Assembly (NCBI GenBank): GCA_018062815.1
Contig: JAGORM010000002.1
Location: forward strand, 11,211-75,210
Direction of reading: 5' to 3'
Origin: Candidatus Levyibacteriota bacterium
Lineage (GTDB): Bacteria > Patescibacteriota > Microgenomatia > Levybacterales > GWA1-39-11
DNA length: 64,000 bases
Part shown: piece by piece, positions 3,094 to 39,054 of the stretch
Layout: every line of letters begins with the position of its first letter
Position numbering within the stretch: position 1 is the first letter of the stretch
Program-made: the position numbers and the translations under genes
Notes under the pieces: generated by a model
Database searches by the model: none
What the model was told of the DNA's origin: nothing
What the model saw: only the letters and a program-made list of their open reading frames with translations

Positions 3094-5283
3094 ATGAAAA
3101 ACATCCTTCCGATTTTTAAAAAAGTTTTATTAGTGATAAGCAAGCCTTCTTTTTGGGTGCATTTACCTAAGAACAGTATTATCTTTATAAAGAAAGCAAG
3201 TGTAACAAGTGTAATATTTGCAAGTTTTTTCCTTCTGCTTAATGTCTGCTTCGTAGAGGTGATATGTAAATATCTGGAATCACTTCCTGTTGTAGGAAGA
3301 ATATTTAAAAAAACAAATATGTTATGGGTAAAATCTTTTGGAAGATATATCCCGAGACTTGTAAGAGGGCTTGAGAAAATGAGGACATATGAAGTACAGC
3401 GTTCTTATCTTATTTTTCTCGCATTTGAAAACTTGCGTGTAAGAAAAAGCAGATCTCTTATCACAGTTGCGGGTATGTCATTTGGAGTAGGTGTAATTGT
3501 CCTGCTTTTATCTTTAGGATATGGAATAGAGCGTTTAGTTGTAAACAAGGTCGCAAGTCTTCAGGACTTACAGGTGGTTGATATTTCAACGGGAGGAAAT
3601 ACAGCAGTAAAATTAACCCAGGACGCAATGAGGAAGTTTCAGAAATTCGGAAAAGTGACAAATGCCATACCGTTTGTTTCTGTTGTCGGAAGAATAACCT
3701 TTAATAAAGCAACCACTGATGTTTTAGTATATTCCGCACCAAATGAATATTTTAAATTCATAAACGCGAAGATGGTGAAGGGAAAGCTTTTTTCAAATAA
3801 TAAAATTTCTTATGCTCCGCCTGATGGTGAAGTTGCAGGGGTATCAACCCAGTATGAAAAAGCAGAATTTGGGAGCAAAGTGAGTCCAAACACAGTTTTG
3901 TTTAATATAAACCCACAAGAAGCGGCAGTTGTTTGGGAGTCATGTAGTACGGGAGGGAAAATTGTAGGGTATACCGCAAGACTCGAAGGAGGGTATAAGG
4001 GGTATCAGTATTGGGGAAGTGAATATTATCCGCTTGAGGGTGACGCGCGGGCTGGGTATAGTAATACTACCCATGAATATTTAGGTAAATGGATAAAGGG
4101 TGTTGTGCCGTTGTATAACAAAAGCTCAGACGGAGCACTTAGACCAATTTTAGATGACCACGGAGTGCATAAATGGCAGGACGCATGTATTCAAATGAAA
4201 TATGTTCAGGTATTAGATGAGTATATTCTTCGTCAAGTTTTAGGTGCGTCAACAAAATCAGGTTCAGTTTTGGCGGCATCGGATTCAGCTTCCATTACGG
4301 CAGAAGCAGATATTGAAAGCTCACAAGATTCATCTTCTTCTGCTGAAATAGATCAAGTAGACTCTGCGGCATTTATTAGTTCATTTGATTCAAGCGTTGT
4401 TGGAACAAATTCTTCAGGAATAGAATTTGTAGATCTTGCATCTCAGCAGAAAGCAAAGAAAAAAGAAACTGAAACATTAAAGTTTAAGGGAGGGCATAGC
4501 GGTGAGGCTATTGTTTCAACTGGACTCCTTAATTTATTGGGTATTCCGGTTTCAAAAGCGTTAGACAGCACATTTAAATCATCTCTTATTATAGGAAAAA
4601 GTCAGATACCGGAATTATTAGGAAAAGCGCAGAGTGAGGAGAAAGATTACAAAATAGTTGGGGTAATTGATGACTTGGATACTCAATACTTTTATATTCC
4701 ATTATCTGACGTAAAGAATTTAGGTGTTACCAATTTCTCTCAAGCAAAGATTGTAATGTTACTTAAGCAGGAAATGGGGAAGTTCAGAAAACAGGTAGAA
4801 GATTTAGGCTTTAGAACTACAAGCACTGCTGATACCGTTAAGCAGATAGAATCATTATTTGGTAATTTAAGAATTGTCTTAGGTCTTTTGGGAATGGTTG
4901 CGCTAGGCGTTGCGTCACTTGGGATGTTTAATACACTAACCGTTTCCCTTCTTGAGCGTACTCGTGAAATCGGTGGAATGAAAACCATAGGTATGGTGAC
5001 TGATGAAGTTCAGGAGCTATTGCTTTCTGAAGCTATGATTATGGGTCTTTCAGGCGGAGTTGGAGGTCTATTGTTGGGGTTTGTTGCGGGCAAGGTGTTA
5101 TCTGGGGCAGTGAGCATTTTTGCAATAGCGGGTGGTCAAGGCTTTTTGGATCTTACATATGTTCCGCCGTTTCTTATACTTTTTATAATTGTTTCGTCAT
5201 TTTTTGTTGGCCTTATTACAGGATTGTATCCTGCAATGCGTGCTCGCAAGATTTCCGCTCTAAATGCCCTGCGGTATGAATGA
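3094..5283 (+). CDS. ABC transporter permease, FtsX/MacB family with large (~430 aa) extracytoplasmic domain
   Basis: ATG 3 nt after the ATPase stop. N-terminal TM (ITVAGMSFGVGVIVLLLSLGYGI), long extracellular domain with an acidic Ser-rich low-complexity segment, C-terminal FtsX-like 3-TM bundle (LRIVLGLLGMVALGVASLGMFN...GLYPAMRARKISALNALR). Confidence 0.8.
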   Translation: MKNILPIFKKVLLVISKPSFWVHLPKNSIIFIKKASVTSVIFASFFLLLNVCFVEVICKYLESLPVVGRIFKKTNMLWVKSFGRYIPRLVRGLEKMRTYEVQRSYLIFLAFENLRVRKSRSLITVAGMSFGVGVIVLLLSLGYGIERLVVNKVASLQDLQVVDISTGGNTAVKLTQDAMRKFQKFGKVTNAIPFVSVVGRITFNKATTDVLVYSAPNEYFKFINAKMVKGKLFSNNKISYAPPDGEVAGVSTQYEKAEFGSKVSPNTVLFNINPQEAAVVWESCSTGGKIVGYTARLEGGYKGYQYWGSEYYPLEGDARAGYSNTTHEYLGKWIKGVVPLYNKSSDGALRPILDDHGVHKWQDACIQMKYVQVLDEYILRQVLGASTKSGSVLAASDSASITAEADIESSQDSSSSAEIDQVDSAAFISSFDSSVVGTNSSGIEFVDLASQQKAKKKETETLKFKGGHSGEAIVSTGLLNLLGIPVSKALDSTFKSSLIIGKSQIPELLGKAQSEEKDYKIVGVIDDLDTQYFYIPLSDVKNLGVTNFSQAKIVMLLKQEMGKFRKQVEDLGFRTTSTADTVKQIESLFGNLRIVLGLLGMVALGVASLGMFNTLTVSLLERTREIGGMKTIGMVTDEVQELLLSEAMIMGLSGGVGGLLLGFVAGKVLSGAVSIFAIAGGQGFLDLTYVPPFLILFIIVSSFFVGLITGLYPAMRARKISALNALRYE

Positions 5284-5322
5284 TCTCTTGATGAGTTGGC
5301 ATAAATCATATACACTTTTTCT

Positions 5323-6057
5323 ATGCCTAAGAAAAGTCAAGATCAAGAAACACTTTCTTCAACATCCTTTACAAAAGAGTCGCTTGTTGACCTTAAAAAA
5401 GAAGGTAAAAACTATTTCCTTCACTGGTTTGATTATCTTGTAACTAACATAAGAAATAAGGTAATAAAGAGGCCAATTGAATATGTGGTTGTGTTTATTG
5501 TAAGTTTTTTTATTACAATATGCGTTTCAGCAATTATTCTGCTCCTAGTTTTTAATAAAATTGAAATGAGTCTTTCACTTCCTGCGATTCCTTTCTATAA
5601 TTTTGGACAGCTTCAGATAAGTAGGACAAATAGAGGAGATGCAAGATTTGACCCTATGGTTTTATTAAAGTTAATACAAAAAAATAATACAGAGTACTTA
5701 CTAATTGATGTACGTACCGCAAGGGAATATGAAAGCGGACATATTAAAACTGCTGTATCCATACCGTTTTATGGTACAGATTTTGTTTTAGATAATGGTG
5801 AGGTAAAAAATATAAGCGGGGAATTAAAAGAAAAATTTAATGTGCTGGCAAAAAACAAAAAAATTGTGATTCTCTACGGACAAACTTCATATTCCTCATA
5901 CGTTGAAAAAGTAGCACAACATCTTGACGCGAGCAGGGGGAAGGTAAAGGTATTAGGTGTAGGTTGGAATGAGTGGGCACACTTTAAGAATTTATGGATT
6001 TCTGAGGCGGATTGGAATGTTATAAATATACAAGACTTTATTCAAGTAAAAGAATAA
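5323..6057 (+). CDS. Membrane-anchored rhodanese-domain protein
   Basis: N-terminal TM (VVVFIVSFFITICVSAIILLLVF); rhodanese signature LIDVRTAREYESGHIKTAVSIPF. Confidence 0.65.
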   Translation: MPKKSQDQETLSSTSFTKESLVDLKKEGKNYFLHWFDYLVTNIRNKVIKRPIEYVVVFIVSFFITICVSAIILLLVFNKIEMSLSLPAIPFYNFGQLQISRTNRGDARFDPMVLLKLIQKNNTEYLLIDVRTAREYESGHIKTAVSIPFYGTDFVLDNGEVKNISGELKEKFNVLAKNKKIVILYGQTSYSSYVEKVAQHLDASRGKVKVLGVGWNEWAHFKNLWISEADWNVINIQDFIQVKE

Positions 6058-6751: not shown

Positions 6752-8413
6752 TTAAATGTGTTTACCGTTTCTTTTATTGTTCTTCATTTGTTCGTATGCC
6801 TCTATGATAATTGATATATCAGATCTCCCAAACATATAGAACCCTAATTCTTTAAAATTATTTAAAAGTGTTGTGGTATCTTGTTCTGTCGGTCGTTTTT
6901 CTAATTGTGCATGTATTCTATATGTAAGAGAGGATATAGCTCTGAGATTAGTGGTAGATGGTTCTGGTAGATCAGATATGAATGAAGACATAATGCGTAG
7001 TGTATCTGGTCGACTGAAGAGGGCTTCTCCTGCGTTGTTTACTGCTCGAAAAGCATCAATAAATAGTTTTTTAGTGGTAAAAATATTTTCTATTTTTTCA
7101 GTTTTTATTTTAAGGTTTTTTAATTCTTCTTGAGTGTCGAGAAGAGAGTTTGTATTCTCAACAAGTTGTATCTGAGCTTGGATTTCATTTTCTGATCTAT
7201 AAAGGTCTTTATCGTTTGTTTCAGTTCTTGAGATATTTTCTGTTCGTGGCAAAGAATCAATAAGCCTATATGCCTTTGTAATAGTATTTAATTCTCTTCC
7301 AAGCGCTTCTTTTTCTTCAATAGAAAGTTGTACTATATATGGTTTTTTAGCAAAATTTATCAATACTGAAAGTGAGCGAGTGTCTAGGGGAGTTTTTTGT
7401 TTAAAACCATTATAAAGATTAGTGAGGTTAGTTAGGACTTCACGGGTTTTTTGATAGTTATTTTCTCCAAGCAATCTTAAGTAAGTTCTAAGGGGTGATT
7501 TAATCATGCCATGCTTGTATAGGTTATTAATTCGGTTCAGTTTTACAGGATCTCCAAGTTGACTATATATTTTTTGCCATTCTAGCATGAGATCATTTTG
7601 ATTAATTTCTCCGCGTTTTTTCTCAGATGCCTGAATTATCTTCAGTTTTTCAGCGTTTTTAGGGTTTGCGGATTTAATATGTTGTGCAATTATCCGTGCA
7701 TCCTTTATATTTGTAATAGCTATTGATGCCAGATTTCCATTCGGGTAGAGGAGTTGATAGGGACGTTCTATTCCTGCTTGCATTAATGTATCTTGAATTA
7801 TGGAACCAATTGATCGGTTTTCTACCAGGAATCGGATTTCATGTTTATCCATAATTGCTCTACCATCAAAAATGCCCGATAAAAAATCCCATATAAACTC
7901 AGGAGATTGAGTCCATGAATATTTTTGAGAAAATGTTTCAGCAAATCTTTCCCTTGACAAGTCACCTAAGCGGTTTACGGCAACACTATTTGAAAAAAGT
8001 ATAACATTTTTTTGTTTTACATCTTTTTCTTGAGATTCGCCTTGGGGATTTTTATCAAATATATGTTTGCCTATGGATGTAAATTTCTCTCTCGTTTCAG
8101 GATTTTTTTCACCTTTTATAAATCTACTTCCAGAATCTACATATGATGCACCACCTGTGTATCCAATGAACCATGCAAGCTCTGAAGATGGTGGAAAAGG
8201 GATAGTTTTGAATTTTTCTTCTGATATTGCTCTTATTCTGCCCAACTTTGTTTTTCCTAATAAGACCTCAACATACGTTGGGGAGTAACCAGTTTTAGCG
8301 CTTAGTTCAGCAAGAGATGCTAGAGATGGTATTTTGCCTTCTGCGTGCAGCCGAGCATTTTCTAGCACATGTGATTCAAAAGCATTTCTTTTTTCTTGCA
8401 AATGTTCTTTCAT
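6752..8413 (-). CDS. Hypothetical 553-aa protein: N-terminal HTH-like segment, two degenerate LAGLIDADG-like motifs, long C-terminal coiled-coil
   Basis: HTH-like LASLAELSAKTGYSPTYVEVLLGK; motif-like segments LAWFIGYTGGASYVDSG (~aa 80) and WDFLSGIFDGRAIMDKHE (~aa 178), ~100 aa apart as in double-motif LAGLIDADG folds; C-terminal half strongly heptad/charged. Confidence 0.55.
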   Translation of the reverse strand: MKEHLQEKRNAFESHVLENARLHAEGKIPSLASLAELSAKTGYSPTYVEVLLGKTKLGRIRAISEEKFKTIPFPPSSELAWFIGYTGGASYVDSGSRFIKGEKNPETREKFTSIGKHIFDKNPQGESQEKDVKQKNVILFSNSVAVNRLGDLSRERFAETFSQKYSWTQSPEFIWDFLSGIFDGRAIMDKHEIRFLVENRSIGSIIQDTLMQAGIERPYQLLYPNGNLASIAITNIKDARIIAQHIKSANPKNAEKLKIIQASEKKRGEINQNDLMLEWQKIYSQLGDPVKLNRINNLYKHGMIKSPLRTYLRLLGENNYQKTREVLTNLTNLYNGFKQKTPLDTRSLSVLINFAKKPYIVQLSIEEKEALGRELNTITKAYRLIDSLPRTENISRTETNDKDLYRSENEIQAQIQLVENTNSLLDTQEELKNLKIKTEKIENIFTTKKLFIDAFRAVNNAGEALFSRPDTLRIMSSFISDLPEPSTTNLRAISSLTYRIHAQLEKRPTEQDTTTLLNNFKELGFYMFGRSDISIIIEAYEQMKNNKRNGKHI

Positions 8414-8461
8414 GAAAAATAGTATATGAAAATGTTAACCTGTAGTGCTGGTTTAGAGTGT

Positions 8462-9049
8462 TTATTTTAAATTTTTCTCTATATACTTAAATTCTTGCTG
8501 CATTCGGTATTCATCTCTTGGGTCTGTTAATCTAGCCAGAAGATAAACATCTTTTACTCCTTGCATAAATGCATGTGAGTTGTTTTTCTTACCCCCTGTG
8601 TTTTCATATATGGATTCTGCATCCTGTAGGTATCCTTTGAGAATTGGTTGTTCACAGTCAAATGGGTGTGGATCTATAAATAATTTGTCTACAAGAAACC
8701 TATTCCTTGAAGATCCGGTTATAAAATGTAGAGCAGTATCAGTTGCTGATACATAGAGTACATCATGCATGAAAAGAAACCCTGACAGGTATGAGATCGT
8801 TTCACTCTCTTTCCCTTTTGTTGTAAGAGTGGTGAGAGTTTTAGAAAGTACCTCAAGTGTCTTGTCGCCCATTTGCGCACGCTTCTGAGCATCATTTAAT
8901 TGAGTGTGTAAGTACGTTAAGGGGTTTTGTTCCAAGTTCTGCATGGGTAGTGCAAAATTTACTTCAGACAGTGTAGGTATGCCACTGGGTAGCCGTGGCT
9001 TTGTATATTGTTCATGGCCAATTTCTTGTTTCATGAAGTGAATATACAC
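8462..9049 (-). CDS. Hypothetical protein (195 aa), co-directional partner of the 553-aa protein
   Basis: ORF only; 48-nt gap to the upstream gene; no recognisable motifs. Confidence 0.5.
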   Translation of the reverse strand: MYIHFMKQEIGHEQYTKPRLPSGIPTLSEVNFALPMQNLEQNPLTYLHTQLNDAQKRAQMGDKTLEVLSKTLTTLTTKGKESETISYLSGFLFMHDVLYVSATDTALHFITGSSRNRFLVDKLFIDPHPFDCEQPILKGYLQDAESIYENTGGKKNNSHAFMQGVKDVYLLARLTDPRDEYRMQQEFKYIEKNLK

Positions 9050-9070
9050 CTTATAGTATTTTTTGTCAAA

Positions 9071-9736
9071 TCAAAGAAATATGAGTGCAAGAAGAGCCAT
9101 TGAGAGACCAAGTACGGCTCCCCCAATAACATCAGTTGTCCAGTGTTCACCTAATGACACTCGGGATACAAGCATAAGAATAACTATTCCCCAAAAAAAT
9201 CCATATGTTCCTAGTTTAATGAAAGTAGAAAGTTTCAATTTGTATATTAAGAATGAAAAAACAAATGCCAAAAATACTATTCTTAGAGAATGCCCTGAGG
9301 GATATGACGCATCTGTGAAGACATGTAAGCCGGGAAAATCAGTAAAATGGGATCGCAAAAACATTCTTGGCGGTCCGGGTTGTTCCAGGATATTTTTTCC
9401 AATAAGTTCAATTACGTGTGCGAATATAAACAAACCCAAAGGAATAACTGCCCATATCTTTTTTTTAAAAATGCCGTAAAGCATCAGAACTATAAGCAGT
9501 ATACTTCCTGTAAATTCAAATCTTCCCGCAACTGAGAGAAATGAGAAAAAGTCATCAAGCCGCAGTGGTATTTTTGCTTGGAGTTTAACTGTAGTATCAA
9601 AGTCAAAAGACCTAAGCATATCTGCCCGCACTGCTAGAGTAAATGCGAAAAACAAAAACAAAAAAAATAGTCCAAGGAGCAAGAACACAAGATTTTGTTT
9701 TGTAAAAAATTTTGTTAGAAAAGTTTTTTTTGCCAC
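9071..9736 (-). CDS. PAP2-family phosphatase (undecaprenyl-diphosphate/phosphatidate phosphatase-like), polytopic membrane protein
   Basis: PAP2 motifs PSGHS and SRVSLGEHWTTDVIGG; 5-6 predicted TM helices. Confidence 0.75.
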   Translation of the reverse strand: MAKKTFLTKFFTKQNLVFLLLGLFFLFLFFAFTLAVRADMLRSFDFDTTVKLQAKIPLRLDDFFSFLSVAGRFEFTGSILLIVLMLYGIFKKKIWAVIPLGLFIFAHVIELIGKNILEQPGPPRMFLRSHFTDFPGLHVFTDASYPSGHSLRIVFLAFVFSFLIYKLKLSTFIKLGTYGFFWGIVILMLVSRVSLGEHWTTDVIGGAVLGLSMALLALIFL

Positions 9737-14736: not shown

Positions 14737-17112
14737 ATGCACCGATTCATCTTCAAAAAATTTGATACCACAAATGATTTTGTAAAAAGACACAAGAAAA
14801 CGGTCTTAATAATTCTTTCGGGTTTCATTTTTGTGGTCATTGTAGTGTTGATTAGCACTCTTTTTATAACAAAAAACTCAATTCATTCAAAAATTCCTGT
14901 AATTCCAACTCCAGTTGCGCTTCAAAATGAAGTTATGGATTATGCTTCAAATTTAAAGTTTAAAAAATACACGTCTCCTGAAAAAATAATCAAAGAGAAC
15001 CCGCTTTATACATATGAACTGAAAGACTCTTTTGCTCGGGAGGATGTTAAAAAAATTGCTGAAAACTTTTCTCTTTTAGATATCGCCTCAGAAGAGGGAT
15101 CGTATGTAACATACAGCGAGACGAAAGACATTAAAAAACTCGGTACATTTACTATGAACAAGGATAACGGATTTTTTACTTATCAGGCGTATAGTTTTCT
15201 TCCGGCTAGTTCATCCAATCCAAAAGACGCAGCAGTTTCGCTGATTAAGAAGCTTGGTTTTTCAGACGGAGACATAACATGCCCCATAACGTATCAACAG
15301 AAAGATGCCCCTGACATAACTTTTGTTGAGTGTCATAGAGATTGGAGTAGGCTCACTGCGCCTCTCTTTACACTTCCTGGAATTATAAATCATGGAGGAA
15401 ACTTCTCACTATCTACAATGGGTGGAGTAGGCATGGTAGATTCAGATGGTCCACTTGATCCAAATATAATAAACGTTTCTACTGGGCAGAATGGGAAAGC
15501 AAGACCAAATGATTTTAACTCTATAACTGTTGGTATTACTAAAAATGGGGCAATATATTCAGTATATTCAAGGATGAGGTTTATAACCGGTAAATCTCAA
15601 ATCGTTAAAAATTCATTGAAGACATATGAAGAAGCATTTTCAGAGATTACAAAAAATCCTACCTATTCATTTTCTATGCCAATTGGCGTTGGAATTGCTG
15701 ATTTTAGGAAGGTATATAAAAATGATGAGGCTGTGGCATTAGAAGCTCAATCTCATGAGTTAGGTATGGCGTACTTGGAATACATAAAAGGAAAACAAAA
15801 AGTGTATGAACCCTTTTATCTTTTATATGGGAGTGCTGAAATTACCTCCGGATATACAATTAAATATGTACAGGCGATCCCAGCAAGTAAATTATCTACT
15901 GCAAGAATTGCTCAGGAATCAACAAACTCACTTCAACTAAGAACATTTAAGCCACTTAATCCTACTCCTACAGTGGGAAGTAGTACCCCACAAAATCCAA
16001 TACCGGGCACACCAATTGAATCAGGGGGTGAAAATTGTCGGACAGGTCCAACGGAAGTAAACAATCATACAGGTGCTTATCCGTTGGTTATTCCGGGATA
16101 CGGAACAATGGTGGTTACCATAGAGGACTTTGGACATCCTTCAAATTTATGGATTTCTTCAATTGATCCGATTGATCCAGGAGTAGATACCACTGTTGTA
16201 GCGGCCAGGAACGCCTTTTTCACGTTTATAGGATATTATTTTGCCTCAGAATACCAAAAAGGGAAAACAGACACCTCTAAAACCGTAAAAGGATCAGGCG
16301 GAATTAAGAAATATTTGCAAGCTGGGGGTAGAATAGGCTCATTACCTTTTGATCAAAACGAATTGATTGCGGCAGTAGATTCCCCGCCCATGCTTAAACC
16401 ATCATTAACAAAAGTTATAAAGTCATTTGAGAAACACGCACTATCTGTTGATAATGGTAATGTCCTTCCTGACGTAGAATATACTGTGCCTGTAGCGTTT
16501 GATTCTTTGTTTTTCTTTGAGAGAAGGCGTGGCGGTAGCGGTCAATGCTATTTAACCGGCGCATCCGGTCCTTCACCTGTAATATTTATGTACTCTGATA
16601 CTCCTGTATCTGCTGAAATTATAAATAATTCGCAAATTACTTATGTTGAGCCAGGACTGGAGAACAAAAAGTGGAACGTGTTATTTGCAAAAGACGGAAT
16701 AACTCAGGCAAATGGGCATAAAAGAAGTTACTTGTATTATGAGTTTGATCGTGGAGTTAATTTTACTAACACAAATATGGGTTATTCTATAAAACGGGAA
16801 GATACATCTGACATTATAAATAAGATAGCAGATGAGCTAAAGCTTACTTCAAAAGAGGCTAGATACTTACATATTGAATTTGAAAAAGCCCTTTCAGACA
16901 TTAAGAGCTCTACTTATATTATGGTCATCTTGGCAGATAAAGATGAAGTTAATAAAAATCTTCCGTTAAAAATCCCTGTGGGAATAAATACCTACAGGTA
17001 CCATTTTCTGTTGTCTGGAACTGATGTAAAAATGCAACTTAATAATCCTAAACTTTCTGAAATAAAAAGAGACGGAGCGGTGCTGATAGAATTAGGGGCA
17101 TCACCAAAATAA
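14737..17112 (+). CDS. Large (791 aa) membrane-anchored extracytoplasmic protein, unknown function
   Basis: N-terminal TM (VLIILSGFIFVVIVVLISTLFI); otherwise no recognised motifs. Confidence 0.6.
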   Translation: MHRFIFKKFDTTNDFVKRHKKTVLIILSGFIFVVIVVLISTLFITKNSIHSKIPVIPTPVALQNEVMDYASNLKFKKYTSPEKIIKENPLYTYELKDSFAREDVKKIAENFSLLDIASEEGSYVTYSETKDIKKLGTFTMNKDNGFFTYQAYSFLPASSSNPKDAAVSLIKKLGFSDGDITCPITYQQKDAPDITFVECHRDWSRLTAPLFTLPGIINHGGNFSLSTMGGVGMVDSDGPLDPNIINVSTGQNGKARPNDFNSITVGITKNGAIYSVYSRMRFITGKSQIVKNSLKTYEEAFSEITKNPTYSFSMPIGVGIADFRKVYKNDEAVALEAQSHELGMAYLEYIKGKQKVYEPFYLLYGSAEITSGYTIKYVQAIPASKLSTARIAQESTNSLQLRTFKPLNPTPTVGSSTPQNPIPGTPIESGGENCRTGPTEVNNHTGAYPLVIPGYGTMVVTIEDFGHPSNLWISSIDPIDPGVDTTVVAARNAFFTFIGYYFASEYQKGKTDTSKTVKGSGGIKKYLQAGGRIGSLPFDQNELIAAVDSPPMLKPSLTKVIKSFEKHALSVDNGNVLPDVEYTVPVAFDSLFFFERRRGGSGQCYLTGASGPSPVIFMYSDTPVSAEIINNSQITYVEPGLENKKWNVLFAKDGITQANGHKRSYLYYEFDRGVNFTNTNMGYSIKREDTSDIINKIADELKLTSKEARYLHIEFEKALSDIKSSTYIMVILADKDEVNKNLPLKIPVGINTYRYHFLLSGTDVKMQLNNPKLSEIKRDGAVLIELGASPK

Positions 17113-18252: not shown

Positions 18253-18993
18253 TTAGAAATCACCAAGGGATTGTAGGATGTCAGCTGCTACATTTGGGCT
18301 GAGAAGCTGTTCAGGGTGAGCATCATACGGTTTATAAGCATCTGGATTTTTCTGTATTACGCCTTTGGCAAAGTGTTTATAATGTTGAATTTGCGACTGC
18401 ATGTCCTTGCGTTCCCGTTCTAGGCAGGGGGATAAAACAGCTGCCAAAAGATCGCGGGGCCATAGTTTTGGATGGGTAATTAGATGTGTACCAGTTGGGT
18501 CAAGCTGAAAAGATTTTTCTATTTGTCTTATTTCTCCTGATGTGAGCGGTGTATCTGGGTAGTCAGCATGAATAAAGGGAAGCTCAGCAGAATAAGTTCC
18601 TGCTACATCATTATTATATCTTGCAGTAAACTTGTATAAAGAAAAAGTTGCCTCATTTCTGGTTTCATAGAGTGAAAGCGCTAGATTTCCCAGTAGAACT
18701 GCCCCTTTATCAGCGTTATAACTTTCATTGTTAGTATTGCTCAGCATAGAATCCTTTGGTGCAATATATTCTAGGGCGCGTTTTTCTTGATTTTCTCCGA
18801 GTCTTCCAGTTTGAAGTCCTCTGGCTCCAGCATCTTTCCATTCATGAGCAAATACTTCAAGTTGAGAAAGAGACTGTGCATGAAGTTCAAATTCCTCACG
18901 TTGCCGCATTTCAAGTGAGGCTGCCAAAGAAGATTTATCTGTATTCATTCTAAGATATCCGCGGATTCTACTGTCTCTTTCTAATTTTTGCAT
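18253..18993 (-). CDS. Hypothetical cytoplasmic protein (246 aa)
   Basis: ORF only. Confidence 0.5.
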   Translation of the reverse strand: MQKLERDSRIRGYLRMNTDKSSLAASLEMRQREEFELHAQSLSQLEVFAHEWKDAGARGLQTGRLGENQEKRALEYIAPKDSMLSNTNNESYNADKGAVLLGNLALSLYETRNEATFSLYKFTARYNNDVAGTYSAELPFIHADYPDTPLTSGEIRQIEKSFQLDPTGTHLITHPKLWPRDLLAAVLSPCLERERKDMQSQIQHYKHFAKGVIQKNPDAYKPYDAHPEQLLSPNVAADILQSLGDF

Positions 18994-19180
18994 GATAAAA
19001 AATAACCCTTGAGTATCTTCACGGATTACTTTGATTTTTTACTGTAAACATATTTTACGTCAGAGATAAGTCTGTTACAGTGATCTATCTCACATCTGGG
19101 GATTTTTAGATGTACGGTTGATTTAAGTTGAGTACTGATTAAAAAAACTTGCTTAAGTTTATTAACTTTAATGAGAAGTG

Positions 19181-19798
19181 TTACTTTAGTAATTTTATCG
19201 ATGATAAGACTTTATTAACCTCGTTCTGATATCCGTTCTGTTTAGGGTCGCTCACAGCATAAGTAATTACTACTGCATAGTTAGACTTATCATCTTTTTG
19301 AAGAGCTAAATTTTTTGAAGTTCCAAGCCCTCTTAAAGCATAACTAAAACCTGGATATTCGTTTTGTATTATTGATTTTTTTGGCTCTACGACTTCTGAT
19401 GTTCCGTCTGCTGTGGATTCCTTTATGCGTGAGTTTACCCAATTTTCCAATGTCTCTCCCTGTAGGTCAATAGTTTCAAACACTATGAGGACACCATCAG
19501 ACATTTCACTTTGGGGTCTTTGAGTTACCCCTCTTTTATATATCCGAATATGCTTAATGTCTTGAGTGTCTAGTGTATAGTCATTAGGATAAAGAATGGA
19601 GAAAATACCCTTTTCATCTAAATAACTGCTTCCGCTAGCTCCCAAATCAATTTGAGATGGCTCGTTCGGGGGAGCAAGGGGAGAAGGTGTTGTGGTTTGT
19701 TGGGAAGTAGACGTTTTTTCTAGTATATTGGAGAAAATCAACCAACATGCAACTCCAATAAGTACTAGTGATAAAATGCCTAACGGTATCAGCTTCAT
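19181..19798 (-). CDS. Secreted/anchored small protein, paralog family member 1 (FSxxYPxxY...SSIKLLK)
   Basis: N-terminal signal-anchor MKLIPLGILSLVLIGVACWLIF (start set at second ATG; track start 19816). Shares motif and C-terminus with the genes at 20011, 20776 and 62628. Confidence 0.6.
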   Translation of the reverse strand: MKLIPLGILSLVLIGVACWLIFSNILEKTSTSQQTTTPSPLAPPNEPSQIDLGASGSSYLDEKGIFSILYPNDYTLDTQDIKHIRIYKRGVTQRPQSEMSDGVLIVFETIDLQGETLENWVNSRIKESTADGTSEVVEPKKSIIQNEYPGFSYALRGLGTSKNLALQKDDKSNYAVVITYAVSDPKQNGYQNEVNKVLSSIKLLK

Positions 19799-20010
19799 GT
19801 GTAGGTATTGTAGCAAACTAATATGAGAATGAGGTAAGAAATTATGTTAAGTGAGTTATGGAGGAGTATCGTTTAAATAGCTCAAAGCTTGTTTGTCTTA
19901 AGCATTAGAGTGAGAAATCTCGAAGATATTTGGTCTTTAACATACAAATATCCATAAAGATGAATAATGTTCGTAGTATATTTCAGAGATTTTTATAACC
20001 TAATGTTGAC

Positions 20011-20676
20011 TTAGTTTGTGAGTTTGAAGCTTGAAATAATTTCTGCAATGGTTTCTTTTGAGGCGTTATAGTCACTTAAAGAAGCTTGCATGCTACCTGA
20101 TGGATAGTCAGTCCCATATAGAATGTTATACTCACCTACTGCAAAATCAACATACGCGCCTCTGTTATTTAAAATAATTTCAGTTTCGTCAATATCTTTG
20201 CCATCAACATTAACTGTTATTTTATTAGTTATAGTACTATTTTCTCCACCAAACCCATATGGAAATTGACCTTTAGAGATAGTAATAGAAACAGTTTTGT
20301 TAGGATTCATTAATTGTACTGTTTCTAAGAATTCGCTTGGTCCGGTTTGTATCCAATCAGCGGGGTACATAAAGGTGTAATTTGCCCCGTTATATGTTTT
20401 CCAATTATTTTTTTGATTTGTAGAAATTGTAGGATTAGGCGTTGGGGTCGTAACAGTAGATGTTGGTTGGAGAGTAGGAGAGGGGGTGATTACTTGTTGG
20501 GGTTGAGTATTATTTTTTTGTGTACCTAAAAAATACGCTCCACCACCTACGATAAGCAATAAGACTATTACGCCTAAAATGATAATAAATTTACCCCTAT
20601 GACTGTTATCAGGGTGTTGTAGGGTTTGATTTGGTGTTTCGGCAGGATTTGTTGGCTGATTAGTAGTATTTTCCAT
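20011..20676 (-). CDS. Secreted/anchored small protein, paralog family member 2
   Basis: TM anchor (FIIILGVIVLLLIVGGGAYFLG), Pro/Thr linker, NWKTYNGANYTFMYPADW motif, C-terminus IISSFKLTN. Confidence 0.65.
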   Translation of the reverse strand: MENTTNQPTNPAETPNQTLQHPDNSHRGKFIIILGVIVLLLIVGGGAYFLGTQKNNTQPQQVITPSPTLQPTSTVTTPTPNPTISTNQKNNWKTYNGANYTFMYPADWIQTGPSEFLETVQLMNPNKTVSITISKGQFPYGFGGENSTITNKITVNVDGKDIDETEIILNNRGAYVDFAVGEYNILYGTDYPSGSMQASLSDYNASKETIAEIISSFKLTN

Positions 20677-20775
20677 ATGAGGTTATTGTTTCAAAATAGA
20701 CAGAGGAAAGCAAGAATCAGATAATATTTCATCCATGATTTGCGGGAGCTAGCAAACTTTGTAGGAACACATGAC

Positions 20776-21363
20776 TTATTTAGCAAACTTGAAGGTTGAG
20801 AGAAGATTATTAAAAGTACTGACGGCATTTTTATTTTTAGTTTCTGTTTCTTCCCAATCAGCATAAATGAGACTGAATTCGTAGTATAACCCGTCTTTTG
20901 AAAATCTTACAACTTCAATAGCCGATTGTATGCCACTAGGAATTGACCATCTTGTTGCTTGTGACCCGCTTACTGTGTATGGATATACTTTTATAGTCTC
21001 TGAGTTACCTAAGTTGATTGGATCATTGGTATAATCTTGTTCAAGGATACTTAAATATATACGCGGCAGAGTAGATTCGCCCTTTTTGACAGGACTATAT
21101 AAAATGACTCCACGACTTTTAGATTTTTCGCTTAACCTCCAATCCTCCGGATAAAAAAAACTAAACCCTAGTTTTTGGTCCATAAATAAGTTTTTTTTAG
21201 GTTGTTTGAATGTAGATGTGAGTTTAAGAGTAGGCGTAGTTTTATTTGAAAAACCCGTTACTTTCACATCTTTTTTTTGTTCTGATGGTTTAATCAAAAA
21301 AGCAATAAACAGTATCAGGATTAGGATGAAGCACGCAATAATTATTTTGTAATAAGTCTTCAT
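20776..21363 (-). CDS. Secreted/anchored small protein, paralog family member 3
   Basis: TM anchor (IIIACFILILILFIAFLI), LGFSFFYPEDW motif, C-terminus LLSTFKFAK. Confidence 0.65.
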   Translation of the reverse strand: MKTYYKIIIACFILILILFIAFLIKPSEQKKDVKVTGFSNKTTPTLKLTSTFKQPKKNLFMDQKLGFSFFYPEDWRLSEKSKSRGVILYSPVKKGESTLPRIYLSILEQDYTNDPINLGNSETIKVYPYTVSGSQATRWSIPSGIQSAIEVVRFSKDGLYYEFSLIYADWEETETKNKNAVSTFNNLLSTFKFAK

Positions 21364-21472
21364 GTTAACTGTGAGAAAAATTTTAACATGGGCAGTTTAA
21401 CACAAACAAGGCTAATAGTAAACTATAAGATTATTTTTTTTGGGGGCAAGCATACATTGTAAGAACACACTG

Positions 21473-22324
21473 TTATGCTTTAATACTTCTTTTATGAAGT
21501 GCATTTTTTATACGTAGATTAAGTTCTTGTGTAAGAGTGGGATTGTCAAAATCACGGTCTACAATTGTATCAATTCCATCTGTGCCAACTTCCAGTACAA
21601 GTAATTTTCCGTCCTTAGATTTAATAAGGTCAACAACCCCAAAAGCGCTAAAGAGTTGAACTGCTTCTAATGCTTTTCTGGAAACATCCATAGCTTCCTC
21701 TGTTGGCTGCTCAAGCGGAAAATATCTTGCTCCTACAGCGTGTGCGACTAAATCTTTGGGTTTTACCCCATCTGGGAGCTTGCGAACATTCCATGCAAAA
21801 ATCTCTCCGTCAACACAGTAAGTTCTATAAACCTCTGGATTTTCATGTCTTACGAATTCCTGGACAATAAACGGTTTTTGCCAATCAAGGTGAGTGAAAT
21901 ACCCCTCAGCATCTAGCTTAACCATTTTCTCACTGTCCACTATGGTGTGTCCTCGCGTTGCCAAGCCTGTTGGGTACTTCAATATCCACTCTTTTTCTGA
22001 ATGTTGTTTTAAAAAATCTTCAGTTTGGGGAGTATCTTTTACCAGATGCGTTTCAGGGGTAGGCACACCATTTTTATTAAATAAATGCGCTTGGATTCGC
22101 TTGTCCCCAGCTGCAATTATCCCAAAATAAGGGATAAATAGTTCATATTTTTTTATTTTTTTGAAACTTTGACGCCCGTCCTCTAAGTAAAGGGGGTAGT
22201 GAACTGCGTTTGCATCAAAAGTCTCAGAAACAGAACCATTCCAATTTCTTGCATTCTCATTTGCTAGTTGTCCGAACCAGGTTTCTCCAACCTTTCCCTG
22301 ATTAACTATTTTTATTTCTTTCAT
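21473..22324 (-). CDS. ATP-grasp family ligase (RimK/GshB-like fold)
   Basis: ATP-grasp signatures: DKRIQAHLFNKNGVPTPET, WILKYPTGLATRGHTIV, FIVQEFVRHENPEVYRTYCVDGEIFAWNVRK, LLVLEVGTDG. Confidence 0.65.
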   Translation of the reverse strand: MKEIKIVNQGKVGETWFGQLANENARNWNGSVSETFDANAVHYPLYLEDGRQSFKKIKKYELFIPYFGIIAAGDKRIQAHLFNKNGVPTPETHLVKDTPQTEDFLKQHSEKEWILKYPTGLATRGHTIVDSEKMVKLDAEGYFTHLDWQKPFIVQEFVRHENPEVYRTYCVDGEIFAWNVRKLPDGVKPKDLVAHAVGARYFPLEQPTEEAMDVSRKALEAVQLFSAFGVVDLIKSKDGKLLVLEVGTDGIDTIVDRDFDNPTLTQELNLRIKNALHKRSIKA

Positions 22325-22437
22325 GAATTAGAGGAGATTATAGGAGGTTCTAGCCAAAATTCAGAAGTTAGATTCGAGTGCTAAAGCTAAACGAGGTTAA
22401 AAGCGATGCAGGCGCTGGTAAACTTCGTTGGAACGTA

Positions 22438-22959
22438 TTATTTTAATAAACCTCTGTTGTTTTCGTAAAAAACCCTCGTATTTTGTTCTATTTGATATTG
22501 TTCAGGTGTGAAAAGTTTAGCTTCGGCAATTTTGTCTGCATTAAAAACAAAATTCATATGCACTGCTTGATAATCAGGGTGGCTCCAGGGATTTTTGCCC
22601 ATTCTTGCTGTCCTAATTCCCCAAGGAAACTCCTTTGGCATTGGCCATTTTTTCCTAATAAGTTTAAGTGTCCTGAAAACATCAGAGCTGTTAACAACCA
22701 ACTGAAGTGCATATAGATCAAGTATTGGTATAGACTTACGCAATGGATTTTCTATCTTTTCAAGTAGCCTATCAGTAGATTTAATTCTCGCGTCGGATTG
22801 CAACACCTCAATTTCGCTCGAAGTTAGATGTGCTAGCATTTCGCTGTGAAGACCTTTTATCACTGCTAATTCGTGAGAGAGATCTCTGTCATTAGCATAG
22901 GCTGCCGTTACCTCGGGTTGCTCTAGTAAAGTCTGAGGACCTGAATATGTTTCTTTCAT
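22438..22959 (-). CDS. RelA/SpoT-domain (GTP pyrophosphokinase-like) small nucleotidyltransferase
   Basis: Matches synthetase-domain landmarks: ARIKSTDRLLEKI (cf. GRVKSxxSxxEKL), IPILDLYALQLVV (cf. DLxGxRII), SSDVFRTLKLIRKKW (cf. DDCYxxLxxI), GKNPWSHPDYQAVHMNFVF (cf. PKxNGYQSLHTxV). The canonical G of DxxG is replaced. Confidence 0.5.
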   Translation of the reverse strand: MKETYSGPQTLLEQPEVTAAYANDRDLSHELAVIKGLHSEMLAHLTSSEIEVLQSDARIKSTDRLLEKIENPLRKSIPILDLYALQLVVNSSDVFRTLKLIRKKWPMPKEFPWGIRTARMGKNPWSHPDYQAVHMNFVFNADKIAEAKLFTPEQYQIEQNTRVFYENNRGLLK

Positions 22960-23009
22960 GCGGTCATTCTATCAAAAAAGAGACCGTTAATCAAACTATA
23001 GGATTTTTG

Positions 23010-23080
23010 CAGGGCCGCAGAGATTCGAACTCTGAAAAGCGGTTTTGGAGACCGCTGTGATACCATTTCACCACAGCCCT
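23010..23080 (-). tRNA. tRNA-Trp (CCA)
   Basis: Minus-strand reading AGGGCTG-TG-GTGA-AATGGTA-TCAC-A-GCGGT-CTCCAAA-ACCGC-TTTTC-CAGAG-TTCGAAT-CTCTG-CGGCCCT-G. Anticodon CCA; acceptor has one G-U pair; no encoded 3' CCA. Confidence 0.75.
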
Positions 23081-23250
23081 TCGATTAGCTCAGGGTAAAC
23101 CCTTCTGTAAGCTCAGGGTAAACCCTTCCGTAAAGCTTCCCTCGGAATACTCGGGACAGGCAGGGTAATCCCTAAGGTAGTCTTATTTTACCCGTTCGAT
23201 AAGCTCAGGGCAAGCCCGTACATTCAAGCTCAGGGCGGGTACAGATTAGT
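23081..23250. repeat. Cluster of 4-5 imperfect copies of AAGCTCAGGG(T/C)AA(A/G)CCC(T) arranged as a duplicated ~50-nt unit, in the divergent spacer between tRNA-Trp and the gene at 23337
   Basis: Copies at ~23086, 23110, 23160 (degenerate, GGCAGGGTAATCCCT), 23200 and 23225. Each contains a short AGGG-TAA(A)-CCCT dyad. Confidence 0.6.
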
Positions 23251-23336
23251 TAAAAACAAATAGAGAAGTTTGACCCCTATAGTATTTTAAGGTATAATTG
23301 TGTTTCTATTTGTTAAGATCAAATAGTGCATAATTT

Positions 23337-24104
23337 ATGGCATTAAATCACGAATCGCATGAAGTTTTTGAACAATACGGTATTTCTGAAGATACACTTT
23401 ATCCAAGGGTAAAGTTGTTAACATCGTCTATAAACTCAACTAAAATTGATCCAATAATGATTGCCATAAATCTTCAAAAAAAAGTTTATGGGGAGACTCC
23501 TGACATAAATATAAGCAAAATTAATCGTTTTACTACAGCAATTTCTAGGCGCGGAATTGATGAAGATGTTCTTGTGGAGACATTTGGGAATAAAGAGGCA
23601 GGAGCGGAGTATGTGAAAAGTAAACTACCATCAGGATTTATGGTGGAAGTGTTTACAGGAGGAGCTTGGAATATAAAAGTTGCAGCTAAAACAGATAAAG
23701 ATTCAGAAAGAAAATTTAATCAGTTGCAGCATTTTGACTCGACAGGTGAAGAAGGTATAAATCAATTGAGTGAGACATGGCCTGTTCTTACAATAACAAA
23801 TGACGGAAAACTTGAATTGTCTTCAAAGGATGCATTTACTATGCGTATAAGTAAATCAGAAGCATCAGTATCAGAACCAAAATGGGAAAAAAAGAGTATA
23901 TTTTTCTCCGCTTATGACATTTATCCCTCTCTTGTTCCTAATGACAGTATAGAAGTTGAAGTCGGAGTACTTATAAGAAATTTTGATGTTCAAGAGATGA
24001 TAGCAAGATTTGGAGAAGGCATTAGACAAAGACAGTTAACACTAGAAGACTTAAGCAGCTACGTTAAGCCTTATATATTACTACATGAACAAAGCAAGGT
24101 ATAA
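23337..24104 (+). CDS. Hypothetical protein (255 aa)
   Basis: ORF immediately upstream of era (stop/start overlap region); no motifs recognised. Confidence 0.5.
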   Translation: MALNHESHEVFEQYGISEDTLYPRVKLLTSSINSTKIDPIMIAINLQKKVYGETPDINISKINRFTTAISRRGIDEDVLVETFGNKEAGAEYVKSKLPSGFMVEVFTGGAWNIKVAAKTDKDSERKFNQLQHFDSTGEEGINQLSETWPVLTITNDGKLELSSKDAFTMRISKSEASVSEPKWEKKSIFFSAYDIYPSLVPNDSIEVEVGVLIRNFDVQEMIARFGEGIRQRQLTLEDLSSYVKPYILLHEQSKV

Positions 24105-38181: not shown

Positions 38182-39054
38182 TTAAGGTGTAGTAGTCGGT
38201 AGTACTATTTGAGGTATGTCTTGGTTTTTCAGTTGTGACTTAGCCTTTAAAAATCCCGATTCTGAAGCATTTGTATTCTTAGGTGTTACGATTATAAGCC
38301 CCTGTATGATCTGACGAGCATCAAGAAGCGCAGTTTTTATATCCTGGATTGCAGTTTGAAGATTTGCTTTTGCGTTTTGAAGAATTATTTTATTGTTAGG
38401 ATAACCTTCTGGAGTGAGTGGGGTAATATTTGTAATAATCGTATTTGCCTGAGCATTTGCGTCTGTAATTTTTAAGTTCATATCTGCAAGTAACGGTTCA
38501 ATTGTGGTAGTATCTACACCATTTTTCTTAGCGCTAGTTATCCTTTCTGATAGTCTGGCTGAAAGCGAGGAAAGTTTTGTTGTTGTTTCAAGTACGCTAT
38601 TTGCACCTGCAAGAAGACGTATTTGTGGGATATAAACAGCATAAACGCGATAAGATGTTACTATAGATTGTATATCTGTCTTAAGAATTGTAGCGTCTGT
38701 ATCTGATTGAATTTTAGTGGACAATGTATTTAGGCTTGTTATTTCAGCTTGAATTGAAGTTGCAAATTTTTCTTTTTGAGCGGGGGTTAAATATTTTAAA
38801 GAGTTTATCTTTGTTAAAAGTTCTGATAATGATTTGATTCGTTTTTGAATTTCAGACAGGGCACGTTGTTGAAGAGTTCCTTGTATATTTTGCTTAATGA
38901 CAGCACTATTGCTTCCAACCCTATTGCCGGTGGGGTATTTAATTTGACTTGGATTGAGCGTCACGCTTTGAGCATGAGCAGTTTTTACCCCCGTGAATAG
39001 AAGTAAAGAGAGAACAATAATTAATAGTGAGCTGTATTTATATGCGTATTTCAT
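38182..39054 (-). CDS. Secreted alpha-helical protein with cleavable signal peptide
   Basis: Signal peptide LLIIVLSLLLFTGVKTAHAQ; helical/coiled composition. Confidence 0.55.
   Translation of the reverse strand: MKYAYKYSSLLIIVLSLLLFTGVKTAHAQSVTLNPSQIKYPTGNRVGSNSAVIKQNIQGTLQQRALSEIQKRIKSLSELLTKINSLKYLTPAQKEKFATSIQAEITSLNTLSTKIQSDTDATILKTDIQSIVTSYRVYAVYIPQIRLLAGANSVLETTTKLSSLSARLSERITSAKKNGVDTTTIEPLLADMNLKITDANAQANTIITNITPLTPEGYPNNKIILQNAKANLQTAIQDIKTALLDARQIIQGLIIVTPKNTNASESGFLKAKSQLKNQDIPQIVLPTTTP

Follow-up and report, generated by a model that had tools for sequence, protein, structure and literature searches.

The window, a 64,000-nucleotide stretch of DNA from an uncultured Candidatus Levyibacteriota bacterium, carries three consecutive minus-strand genes, designated A, B and C, downstream of a tRNA-Trp gene (Table 1). 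Open reading frames were found where the initial annotation had placed the trio; the size range that it gave, 205–221 aa, holds for A and B, but not for the shorter C. The spacers at this locus are 212, 99 and 109 bp. The frame of gene A has a possible formal start at TTG 19816 (19181–19816); the orthologues and a 100% identical 205-aa database protein indicate that the true start is ATG 19798.

Table 1. Features at the tRNA-Trp locus and the remote fourth member of the family.
Feature	Position	Strand	Description
Gene A	19181–19798	minus	205 aa; PsbP/Mog1-fold domain
Gene B	20011–20676	minus	221 aa; PsbP-like domain
Gene C	20776–21363	minus	195 aa; PsbP_2-like domain
ATP-grasp gene	21473–22324	minus	within the 2.26-kb block
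RelA/SpoT-like gene	22438–22959	minus	within the 2.26-kb block
Indel block	20746–23006	minus	2.26 kb: RelA/SpoT-like, ATP-grasp, gene C
tRNA-Trp (CCA)	23009–23080	minus	conserved anchor upstream of the trio
Fourth family member	62628–63290	minus	220 aa; ENWKTYNSSSNFSFSYPKNL ... ILSSFKFKN; PsbP_2 E 4.3e-5

Anchor, linker and domain

Each of the three proteins consists of one N-terminal transmembrane (TM) helix, a polar linker and a domain of about 140 aa, which begins with (W)KTY..FSFxYPxDW and finishes with LSxFKF. Exactly one strongly hydrophobic 19-aa segment is present in each, near the N-terminus (A 3–21, B 30–48, C 6–24; mean Kyte–Doolittle value 2.6–3.25); the hydrophobic segment measures 19–23 residues per protein and is helical in the models of A and B. 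In the model of A, the TM helix spans residues 4–27 (nt 19718–19789) and is followed by a disordered linker (28–55) and a PsbP/Mog1-fold domain (56–205, nt 19184–19633). Protein B has a polar 28-aa N-terminal tail, a TM helix at 30–48 (nt 20533–20589), a Pro/Thr/Gln linker and a PsbP-like domain at about residues 92–221 (nt 20014–20403). In C, the TM segment at 6–24 (nt 21292–21348) precedes a Lys/Thr-rich linker and a PsbP_2-like domain at about residues 58–195 (nt 20779–21192).

The common layout of signal anchor, linker and domain, proposed in the initial annotation, is borne out by the hydrophobicity profile and a motif check, and the YPxD[WY] motif and C-terminal SS[IF]K[LF] tails read as quoted there. 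The linker, described as variable and built of Pro, Thr and Gln, has this character in A and B (P/T/S/Q/N fraction 0.68 and 0.82), but not in C, where it is Lys-rich rather than Pro/Thr-rich (0.44). A six-frame scan of ORFs of at least 80 aa found only five matches to the strict motif, A, B and C among them; the other two, at 10447 and 37314, are membrane-type hydrophobic sequences.

Basic residues lie ahead of the TM segment in A and B, and the flanks in C are ambiguous. An uncleaved anchor with N-in/C-out topology would fit the hydrophobic length and the flanking charges, the two features by which anchor and cleaved signal, or N-in and N-out, were weighed. Two other proteins of the window, one DsbA-like and one LytR_C, have the same anchor-plus-linker N-terminus; proteins of these two kinds act outside the cytoplasm. 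Other export classes were ruled out by the absence of their motifs, namely type IV pilins (G/FTLxE prepilin motif), sortase substrates (LPXTG) and lipoproteins (lipobox). No Cys stands in a lipobox context in A, B or C: A and C have a single Cys each, located within the TM segment, and B contains no Cys.

Homology and fold of the domains

Pairwise identity among A, B and C is 17–22%, and direct BLASTP (A–B, E 0.27; A–C, E 0.002 over 18 aa; B–C, E 5e-5, mainly over the TM segment and linker) is too weak to serve as proof of homology. The proteins might, then, share nothing but a generic export N-terminus and a short motif arisen by chance, with unrelated domains. The TM-plus-linker part is indeed generic, since the family HMMs also match DsbA-like and LytR_C proteins through it; the hits of full-length HMMs or hhalign at 39054–39500, 48507–49160 (LytR_C) and 55225–55947 (DsbA-like) are false positives of this origin. 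Because full-length scores were inflated in this way, the test was rerun on the domains alone with shuffled controls. With the TM segment and linker removed, the C-family profile scored A at 24.6, B at 27.2 and the fourth copy at 27.2 bits, whereas 200 shuffles of each reached no more than 6.9–9.8 bits. Domain-only hhalign gave 96% over 129 columns for C–A and 98% over 46 columns for C–B, and the C and A families aligned at 97% over 139 columns, the whole domain. Alignments of B with A or C by hhalign cover the N-terminal part alone, a point on the side of unrelated domains, and direct A–B similarity is not significant in BLASTP or domain-only hhalign. The homology is thus real but remote, and is connected through the C family. 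The domain-only scores, the full-domain C–A alignment and the retrieval of PsbP by separate models of A and B have already largely refuted the reading as unrelated domains, which is extremely improbable. The family seen in the initial annotation is upheld, and the HMM search for more copies that it proposed yielded the fourth member, 41 kb away from the trio.

A common domain of PsbP/Mog1 type is supported, for A and B by their predicted structures and for C by its family link. The AlphaFold2 model of A has a pLDDT of 87.5 (above 95 in the domain) and an element order of β5–α–β4–α. The hallmarks of the Mog1/PsbP superfamily were found: an α–β–α sandwich with a central antiparallel sheet, an N-terminal β-hairpin and a C-terminal helix packed on the sheet. 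In this model, the WKTY and FSFxYP segments form strands 1 and 2 of the N-terminal hairpin, and the LSSxKL tail is predicted to complete the C-terminal helix and to form a final short strand, rather than to act as a sorting signal. Foldseek searches with the model retrieved BT_1490, PsbP, CyanoP, Apa and SciW (E 6e-6 to 1e-3) and DcrB (E 1.5e-3). The model of B lacks the first flanking helix, and its domain blocks are mostly at pLDDT 78–96, with dips to about 65 in a low-confidence stretch; all of its top 15 Foldseek matches are PsbP or CyanoP.

Subthreshold Pfam PsbP and PsbP_2 matches recur in 13 of the 47 family A members, 10 of the 13 family B members and 20 of the 23 relatives of C. The best recurrent profile is PF18933 (PsbP_2, bacterial PsbP-like), which has the YPxxW start and STFKF-type end in common with these proteins and to which the same 20 relatives of C match, at best with E 6e-13. 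The gathering cut-off of 27 bits is missed by B (14.2 bits), C (18.4 bits, E 0.0024) and the fourth copy (24.1 bits), and A has no match. Full-domain alignment to PsbP_2 was obtained for B (residues 78–218 to profile positions 30–183 of 184) and C (7–138 to 1–133); A is linked to this type over the full domain through the C-family profile alignment only. With their own scores under 27 bits and relatives of C reaching E 6e-13, the three proteins belong to PsbP_2 by transitive homology only. The resemblance to PsbP/Mog1 domains, offered at the outset as speculation, is thereby backed by the predicted structures of A and B and by recurrent Pfam matches in all three families. Searching PDB sequences with profiles produced no significant match (best PsbP-type matches E 0.3–0.7), and PADLOC and PHROGs had no meaningful matches for A, B, C or the ATP-grasp/RelA–SpoT pair. 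Two subthreshold NCBIfam hits, T7SS_Rv3446c (27 bits against a cut-off of 47.6) and PSII_PsbP, were put down to the composition of anchor and linker and were set aside.

Known proteins of this fold differ from the trio in several respects. PsbP and CyanoP (PF01789), lumenal extrinsic subunits of photosystem II, are 8–14% identical to these proteins and are soluble or lipid-anchored, whereas a TM helix would tether A, B and C. The cut-offs for PsbP proper (PF01789, 23.5 bits; NF040946, 60 bits) are missed by B (17 and 15 bits) and C (15.9 and 12.3 bits), and A gives nothing. None of the window ORFs examined is a photosystem gene; the relatives bear the names Levybacteria, Woesebacteria, Gottesmanbacteria or Microgenomates, and Microgenomates are a non-photosynthetic group. 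The mycobacterial proteins LpqN, MTC28 and Apa, from another phylum, have a PsbP-like fold and are secreted or lipoproteins, in contrast to the predicted TM anchoring of A, B and C without a lipobox or cleaved signal; a significant sequence relation is lacking. DUF1795 proteins (DcrB, the Eag chaperones SciW and PA0094, Tsi3, TplEi) act as chaperones in the cytosol, as lipoproteins in the periplasm or as immunity proteins linked to the type VI secretion system (T6SS), and differ from A, B and C, which have a predicted TM anchor of their own. The DUF1795 profile matches neither the three proteins nor their families, and T6SS genes, PAAR and Rhs effectors are absent from the ORFs examined near the trio and from related loci. 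Two structural-genomics proteins, BT_1490 (3hlz), which carries a second domain, and the Jonesia protein 3lyd, show 8–13% identity; neither has a known function, so they add no mechanism.

History of the tRNA-Trp locus

Gene A is a conserved single-copy gene; in many Microgenomates it lies downstream of tRNA-Trp, at a distance between a few hundred bases and a few kb. Of 20 genome loci, 10 have this tRNA gene upstream of A, the intervening genes being unrelated, and A has no other conserved neighbour. The 2.26-kb block adjoins the 3′ end of tRNA-Trp and is missing in a close relative (L004), where B directly follows the tRNA gene and the B–A pair occurs without C and without the ATP-grasp and RelA/SpoT-like genes, together with two further family copies. 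The B–A pair is common to close relatives only, a B-like gene adjoins A in another genome (L011), and more distant genomes have A alone or B alone. The orthologue of C in a third relative (L001; 77% aa identity) is alone at a different locus without the ATP-grasp/RelA–SpoT pair, with a second family copy 1.5 kb away. Gene C arrived or survives as part of the indel block. A functional tie to the ATP-grasp/RelA–SpoT pair, directly downstream of which the initial annotation placed the array, is not supported, since the pair is absent beside B–A in L004 and beside C in L001. At the distal junction of the block, only about 6–8 nt (cc[ct]gcaaa) resemble the 3′ end of tRNA-Trp, which is not convincing as an att-like copy. 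A scan of viral contigs with C found no relatives, and a scan of metagenome contigs found one weak locus.

Judging by their divergence, A, B and C appear not to be recent tandem duplicates, but old, very divergent relatives with separate orthologue sets. The space between tRNA-Trp and A is a variable slot starting at the tRNA 3′ end. In this lineage it is filled by B, and in this strain only, the RelA/SpoT-like gene, the ATP-grasp gene and C are placed as a block between tRNA-Trp and B. The adjacency of the three genes would then be historical, produced by local gene flux and not by duplication. The rival reading, close to that of the initial annotation, is a lineage-specific tandem expansion, in which recent local duplication gave surface proteins that diversify for host interaction. 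In its favour, the three genes lie side by side on one strand with a shared architecture, clusters of members also occur in L004, L011 and L001, and the dN/dS values of A (0.18), B (0.26) and C (0.41) exceed those of the most constrained flanking genes (Era 0.01, a 256-aa ORF 0.03, a 159-aa ORF 0.05, PD40 0.07), although other flanking ORFs reach 0.14–0.32. The values of A, B and C indicate purifying selection. An expansion of this kind is very unlikely in view of the low identity among the three, the presence of each orthologous lineage alone at other loci and the position of C in an indel block. Fast diversification is likewise not supported: among 47 orthologues of family A, the domain, though not the TM segment and linker, is highly conserved across Microgenomates, a poor fit to a fast-diversifying host-interaction protein.

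A bolder version of gene flux makes the stretch downstream of tRNA-Trp a hot spot for cassette exchange, at which distant lineages of Microgenomates would trade single PsbP-like envelope modules, along with further small genes. A 635-bp segment with C, from 16 bp before the start to 31 bp past the stop, has 85.5% DNA identity between this genome and one in which the RNase HII protein is 45% identical, and in both, tRNA-Trp lies 1.6–2.4 kb upstream of C. The RelA/SpoT-like gene of the slot shares 78% identity with one from a genome where Era identity is 56%, and dS for B and A (0.18–0.33) is below that of most flanks (0.8–1.2). This suggestion is tentative and on balance unlikely; if true, PsbP-like modules would form an exchangeable surface repertoire.

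Putative role in the cell envelope

Proteins A, B and C and the fourth copy are probably distant single-pass modules of the PsbP/Mog1 fold, tethered for binding, whose adjacency is historical. In this layout, a short N-terminus would stay in the cytoplasm, and a single TM anchor followed by a flexible polar stalk would carry one domain of PsbP_2 type outside it. To our knowledge, all members of this fold class that have been characterised are binding modules without enzymatic activity. By analogy with them, these proteins are most likely non-catalytic binding or adaptor modules tethered in the cell envelope, each perhaps with a partner of its own: a protein, a lipid or a wall component. Entirely different sets of conserved residues in the three families speak for different partners. 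Literature searches on PF18933, on PsbP in CPR/Patescibacteria and on PsbP-like lipoproteins turned up nothing on the function of this family.

Instead of acting separately, the three proteins might cooperate in a hetero-oligomeric envelope complex encoded by one transcription unit downstream of tRNA-Trp. Several relatives (P0082, P0085, P0087, P0093 and P0100) fuse two to six PsbP-like modules per chain, a Rosetta-stone hint in this direction; B and A remain neighbours in L004, as do a B-like gene and A in L011, and a terminator scan found no terminator-like site in 18900–23400. Such a complex is improbable, however, given that A and B are solitary in other genomes and C stands alone in L001, that the genes are 99–212 bp apart and that a promoter scan of the same region was uninformative, at background level (18 sites against 14.1 expected). 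The partners might also be lipids throughout; the proteins would then resemble LpqN of mycobacteria and carry lipids or glycolipids used in envelope biogenesis, instead of being adaptors that bind proteins. Lipid synthesis pathways are known to be lacking in CPR bacteria, which would suit a carrier; the sequence link to Lpp-LpqN (PF10738) is negligible, with a match in one distant relative (E 0.058), and PsbP and CyanoP score equal to or above LpqN, so a carrier role seems rather doubtful.

As putative tethered binding modules, A, B and C are divergent members of an ordinary envelope protein family of known type, and no new mechanism is revealed, as the domain family is already in Pfam. The genomes of CPR/Patescibacteria are full of small exported proteins without annotation, and for the recurrent WKTY...YPxDW...STFKF class, hypothetical proteins gain a fold, a putative location and a testable, putative role in envelope binding. 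Compared with PF18933, family A stands apart as a well-conserved subfamily of Microgenomates that has an invariant motif of its own, RIYKRGxTQRPQSEMSDG, and provides a conserved single-copy Microgenomates marker adjoining tRNA-Trp. Its many invariant charged residues include D77, R85, K88, Q96, E98 and D184, D101, G102 and P185 are invariant as well, and the charged positions could equally mark a small-molecule site or even a catalytic one.

Gene trio and predicted export

Three consecutive minus-strand genes, A, B and C, are present in the ORF list as had been noticed from the sequence. The spacers in the array are 212, 99 and 109 bp, and the GC content of the window is 32–41% (2-kb windows). 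The orthologues, and a database protein of 205 aa with 100% identity, place the start of A at an ATG. The named relatives are assigned to Microgenomates, Levybacteria, Woesebacteria or Gottesmanbacteria, groups of the CPR/Patescibacteria. One more family member, located far from the trio, may be the 'fourth paralog' alluded to in the initial annotation.

Features of the window discussed in the text
Feature	Position	Strand	Length	Remarks
ORF	14737–17112	plus	791 aa	N-terminal TM segment, no Pfam match; missing in L004, where PD40 and NlpE-like genes adjoin
Gene A	19181–19816 if TTG start; start placed at ATG 19798	minus	205 aa	
Gene B	20011–20676	minus	221 aa	
Segment shared with L001	20745–21379		635 bp	Contains C; L001 7985–8619
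Block missing in L004	20746–23006		2.26 kb	RelA/SpoT-like gene, ATP-grasp gene and C; exact breakpoint at the tRNA-Trp 3′ end
Gene C	20776–21363	minus	195 aa	Slightly outside the 205–221 aa initially reported
ATP-grasp gene	21473–22324	minus		Upstream of array; RimK, E 1.3e-6
RelA/SpoT-like (RSH-like) gene	22438–22959	minus	173 aa	Upstream of array; E 4e-4, subthreshold
tRNA-Trp(CCA)	23009–23080			Beyond the RelA/SpoT-like gene
Hairpin-like repeats	23087–23235		23-nt tandem unit	CCCTGAGC-N-CGAA(G/C)GGG, just upstream of tRNA-Trp
LytR_C protein	48507–49160			
DsbA-like thioredoxin	55225–55947			
Fourth family member	62628–63290	minus	220 aa	ENWKTYNSSSNFSFSYPKNL ... ILSSFKFKN; PsbP_2, E 4.3e-5; 41 kb from the trio

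A single strongly hydrophobic segment is present in each protein (residues 3–21 in A, 30–48 in B and 6–24 in C), and none of the three contains a lipobox. In the AlphaFold models of A and B, this segment is a helix (4–27 and 30–48, respectively) followed by a disordered stretch. The P/T/S/Q/N fraction of the linker is 0.68 in A, 0.82 in B and 0.44 in C, the linker of which is Lys-rich. HMMs built from full-length alignments also match a DsbA-like thioredoxin and a LytR_C protein of the window, via the anchor and linker alone. This N-terminal design is not family-specific, and the cross-matches are a caveat for similarity statistics. Since DsbA-like and LytR_C proteins act outside the cytoplasm, they also provide indirect support for an extracytoplasmic location of A, B and C.

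Remote homology and PsbP-like fold

The identities among A, B and C in a MAFFT alignment are 17–22%. Pairwise BLASTP was weak, with E-values of 0.27 for A–B, 0.002 for A–C (over 18 residues) and 5e-5 for B–C, the latter mostly in the anchor and linker. Homologue searches yielded 66 relatives of A, 12 of B (seven orthologues and five distant proteins) and two of C; an exhaustive phmmer search with C against 1.84 billion representatives yielded no more than 27 at E ≤ 1e-3, mostly as end-to-end matches. Profile–profile comparison aligned family C with family A over the entire domain (97% probability, 139 columns), while the C–B (99%) and A–B (96%) matches covered the N-terminal part only. When anchors and linkers were removed, the family C HMM scored 24.6 bits for A and 27.2 bits for both B and the fourth window protein, far over the maxima of 6.9–9.8 bits for 200 shuffles of each; direct A–B similarity was not significant in the domain-only test. 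A, B and C are, on these scores, genuine but remote homologues, connected via the more typical C family, and the shared architecture and motifs of the initial annotation were correctly recognised.

The Pfam matches of the window proteins are subthreshold: PsbP (0.0062) and PsbP_2 (PF18933; 0.044) for B, PsbP_2 (0.0024) for C and none for A. Among their homologues, PsbP is matched by 13 of the 47 family A members, PsbP_2 by 10 of the 13 members of the B alignment and by 20 of the 23 relatives of C (best 6e-13), ten of which also match PsbP (best 2.3e-8). Several relatives of C (P0082, P0085, P0087, P0093 and P0100) are fusions with 2–6 tandem PsbP-like modules per polypeptide, each beginning with WKTY..YP..W and ending with FKF. 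PDB sequence searches, NCBIfam, PADLOC and PHROGs added nothing significant.

The model of A, built from a 47-sequence alignment, has a mean pLDDT of 87.5, mostly above 95 in the domain, and comprises five strands, a helix, four strands, a helix and a short strand. Its Foldseek matches in the PDB include BT_1490, PsbP of several plants and algae, CyanoP, Mtb Apa and SciW (E 6e-6 to 1e-3) and, more weakly, DcrB (1.5e-3), Tsi3 and MTC28. The B model, built from 13 sequences, is without the first flanking helix; its mean pLDDT is only 68 because of the tail and linker, with domain blocks mostly at 78–96 and dips to about 65. PsbP or CyanoP accounts for all 15 of its top 15 matches. Both models and the recurrent PsbP/PsbP_2 matches among relatives thus bear out the earlier speculation about a PsbP/Mog1 fold. 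In the model of A, the conserved ends are those of the structural domain, not sorting signals, since 'WKTY' corresponds to strand 1 (56–60), 'FSxxYP' to strand 2 (66–71) and the 'LSSIKL' tail to the end of the last helix (190–199) and the terminal strand (202–203).

With their divergent sequences and sub-threshold scores, A, B and C are CPR representatives of a Pfam family that already exists but is uncharacterised. The only paper found mentioning PF18933 says no more than that such genes occur together with an uncharacterised family of hydrolases (PMC11878206); a literature search found no paper tying PsbP-like domains to CPR biology. The assignment helps annotation but has modest general interest; only the variable slot beside tRNA-Trp and the possible exchange of cassettes are mildly unusual.

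Possible binding role

All three genes are under purifying selection (dN/dS 0.18–0.41). In family A, the domain is highly conserved, while sequence varies freely in the anchor and linker. Most of the invariant residues, among them D77, R85, K88, Q96, E98 and D184, carry a charge or are polar; the conserved positions are not the same in families A, B and C.

Characterised members of the PsbP/Mog1 fold class are binding proteins, not enzymes: the targets are photosystem II for PsbP, Ran for Mog1, effector TM helices for the Eag chaperones and its effector for Tsi3, while the PDB title of LpqN calls it a lipid binding protein of envelope biogenesis. By analogy, A, B and C are proposed, at slightly better than even chances, to be non-catalytic modules tethered to the membrane outside the cytoplasm, with binding or adaptor roles towards different partners. 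The main alternatives are a lipid-carrier role and a hetero-oligomeric complex of the three proteins, to which the relatives with 2–6 modules fused in one chain lend some support. Nothing was found that ties A, B and C functionally to the ATP-grasp/RSH-like pair.

The tRNA-Trp slot and signs of exchange

The close relative represented by L004–L006 has 83–89% DNA identity in the flanks and the gene order Era, 251-aa gene, tRNA-Trp, B, A, without C, the ATP-grasp gene or the RSH-like gene. Neither an integrase nor a convincing att-type repeat was found for the block missing there. Between A and a 248-aa gene (7072–9394), L004 carries a PIN-domain toxin–antitoxin pair together with two additional PsbP-like genes of the family (252 and 231 aa); these are absent from the window, with the junction near 19108–19140. 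The C orthologue in L001–L003 (77% aa identity) is solitary in another neighbourhood. In more distant genomes, A is solitary in L007 (59% identical) and B in L009 (64%), where B again directly follows tRNA-Trp.

tRNA-Trp(CCA) lies 0.1–3.7 kb upstream of A in 10 of 20 Microgenomates genome loci with an A orthologue, as well as in the window and L004. The loci bearing on this arrangement are L004, L009, L011, L012, L015–L020, L024, L029 and the window (23009–23080 to 19181). The intervening genes are unrelated and vary between genomes (RibD_C, glyoxalase, YunG, CBM96, C39-like), and A has no other conserved neighbour across the loci examined. A, a conserved single-copy gene, therefore forms an anchor pair with the nearby tRNA-Trp, and a (hyper)variable slot separates the two. 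Many GTDB-representative MAG records among L011–L031 with family A genes are titled 'uncultured Gammaproteobacteria bacterium'; these titles look unreliable, the gene content and relatives being Microgenomates-like.

The 'array' of the window consists of A, of B as an older slot occupant, and of a strain-specific block carrying C. A recent tandem duplication is made very unlikely by the 17–22% identity, the solitary orthologues and the position of C in that block. The lineage-specific tandem expansion beside an ATP-grasp/RelA-SpoT pair, as initially envisaged, is not borne out, the pair and C being absent from L004 and C solitary in L001–L003.

The C-containing segment is the only one shared with L001 (85.5% DNA identity, dS 0.29), RNase HII of the two genomes being only 45% identical in protein sequence; C lies downstream of tRNA-Trp in both. 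C may thus have been exchanged horizontally as a single-gene cassette. Against L004, dS is 0.18 and 0.33 for B and A, respectively (19140–20746), lower than for Era, PD40, NlpE-like and other flanking genes (0.8–1.2), and 0.26–0.44 for two genes beyond Era, a mosaic suggestive of recent recombination patches. The RSH-like protein shares 78% identity with its counterpart in L029 (949–1470), also in the tRNA-Trp slot, at 56% identity for Era and 42% for the tblastn match to A; either mobility or unusual conservation of the RSH-like protein would account for this. Beside the L029 gene, an APH-type kinase and an MBL-fold protein take the place of an ATP-grasp; the ATP-grasp/RSH partnership is not conserved. 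Taken from single pairwise comparisons, these sequence data suggest recombination or horizontal exchange in the tRNA-Trp region.

Within the short hairpin-like repeats upstream of tRNA-Trp, TRF detects two copies of the 23-nt unit, and additional degenerate ones are visible by eye. They recur in the same place in relatives, some of them distant (L004 ~5270–5410, L001 5478, L029 3500 and 904).
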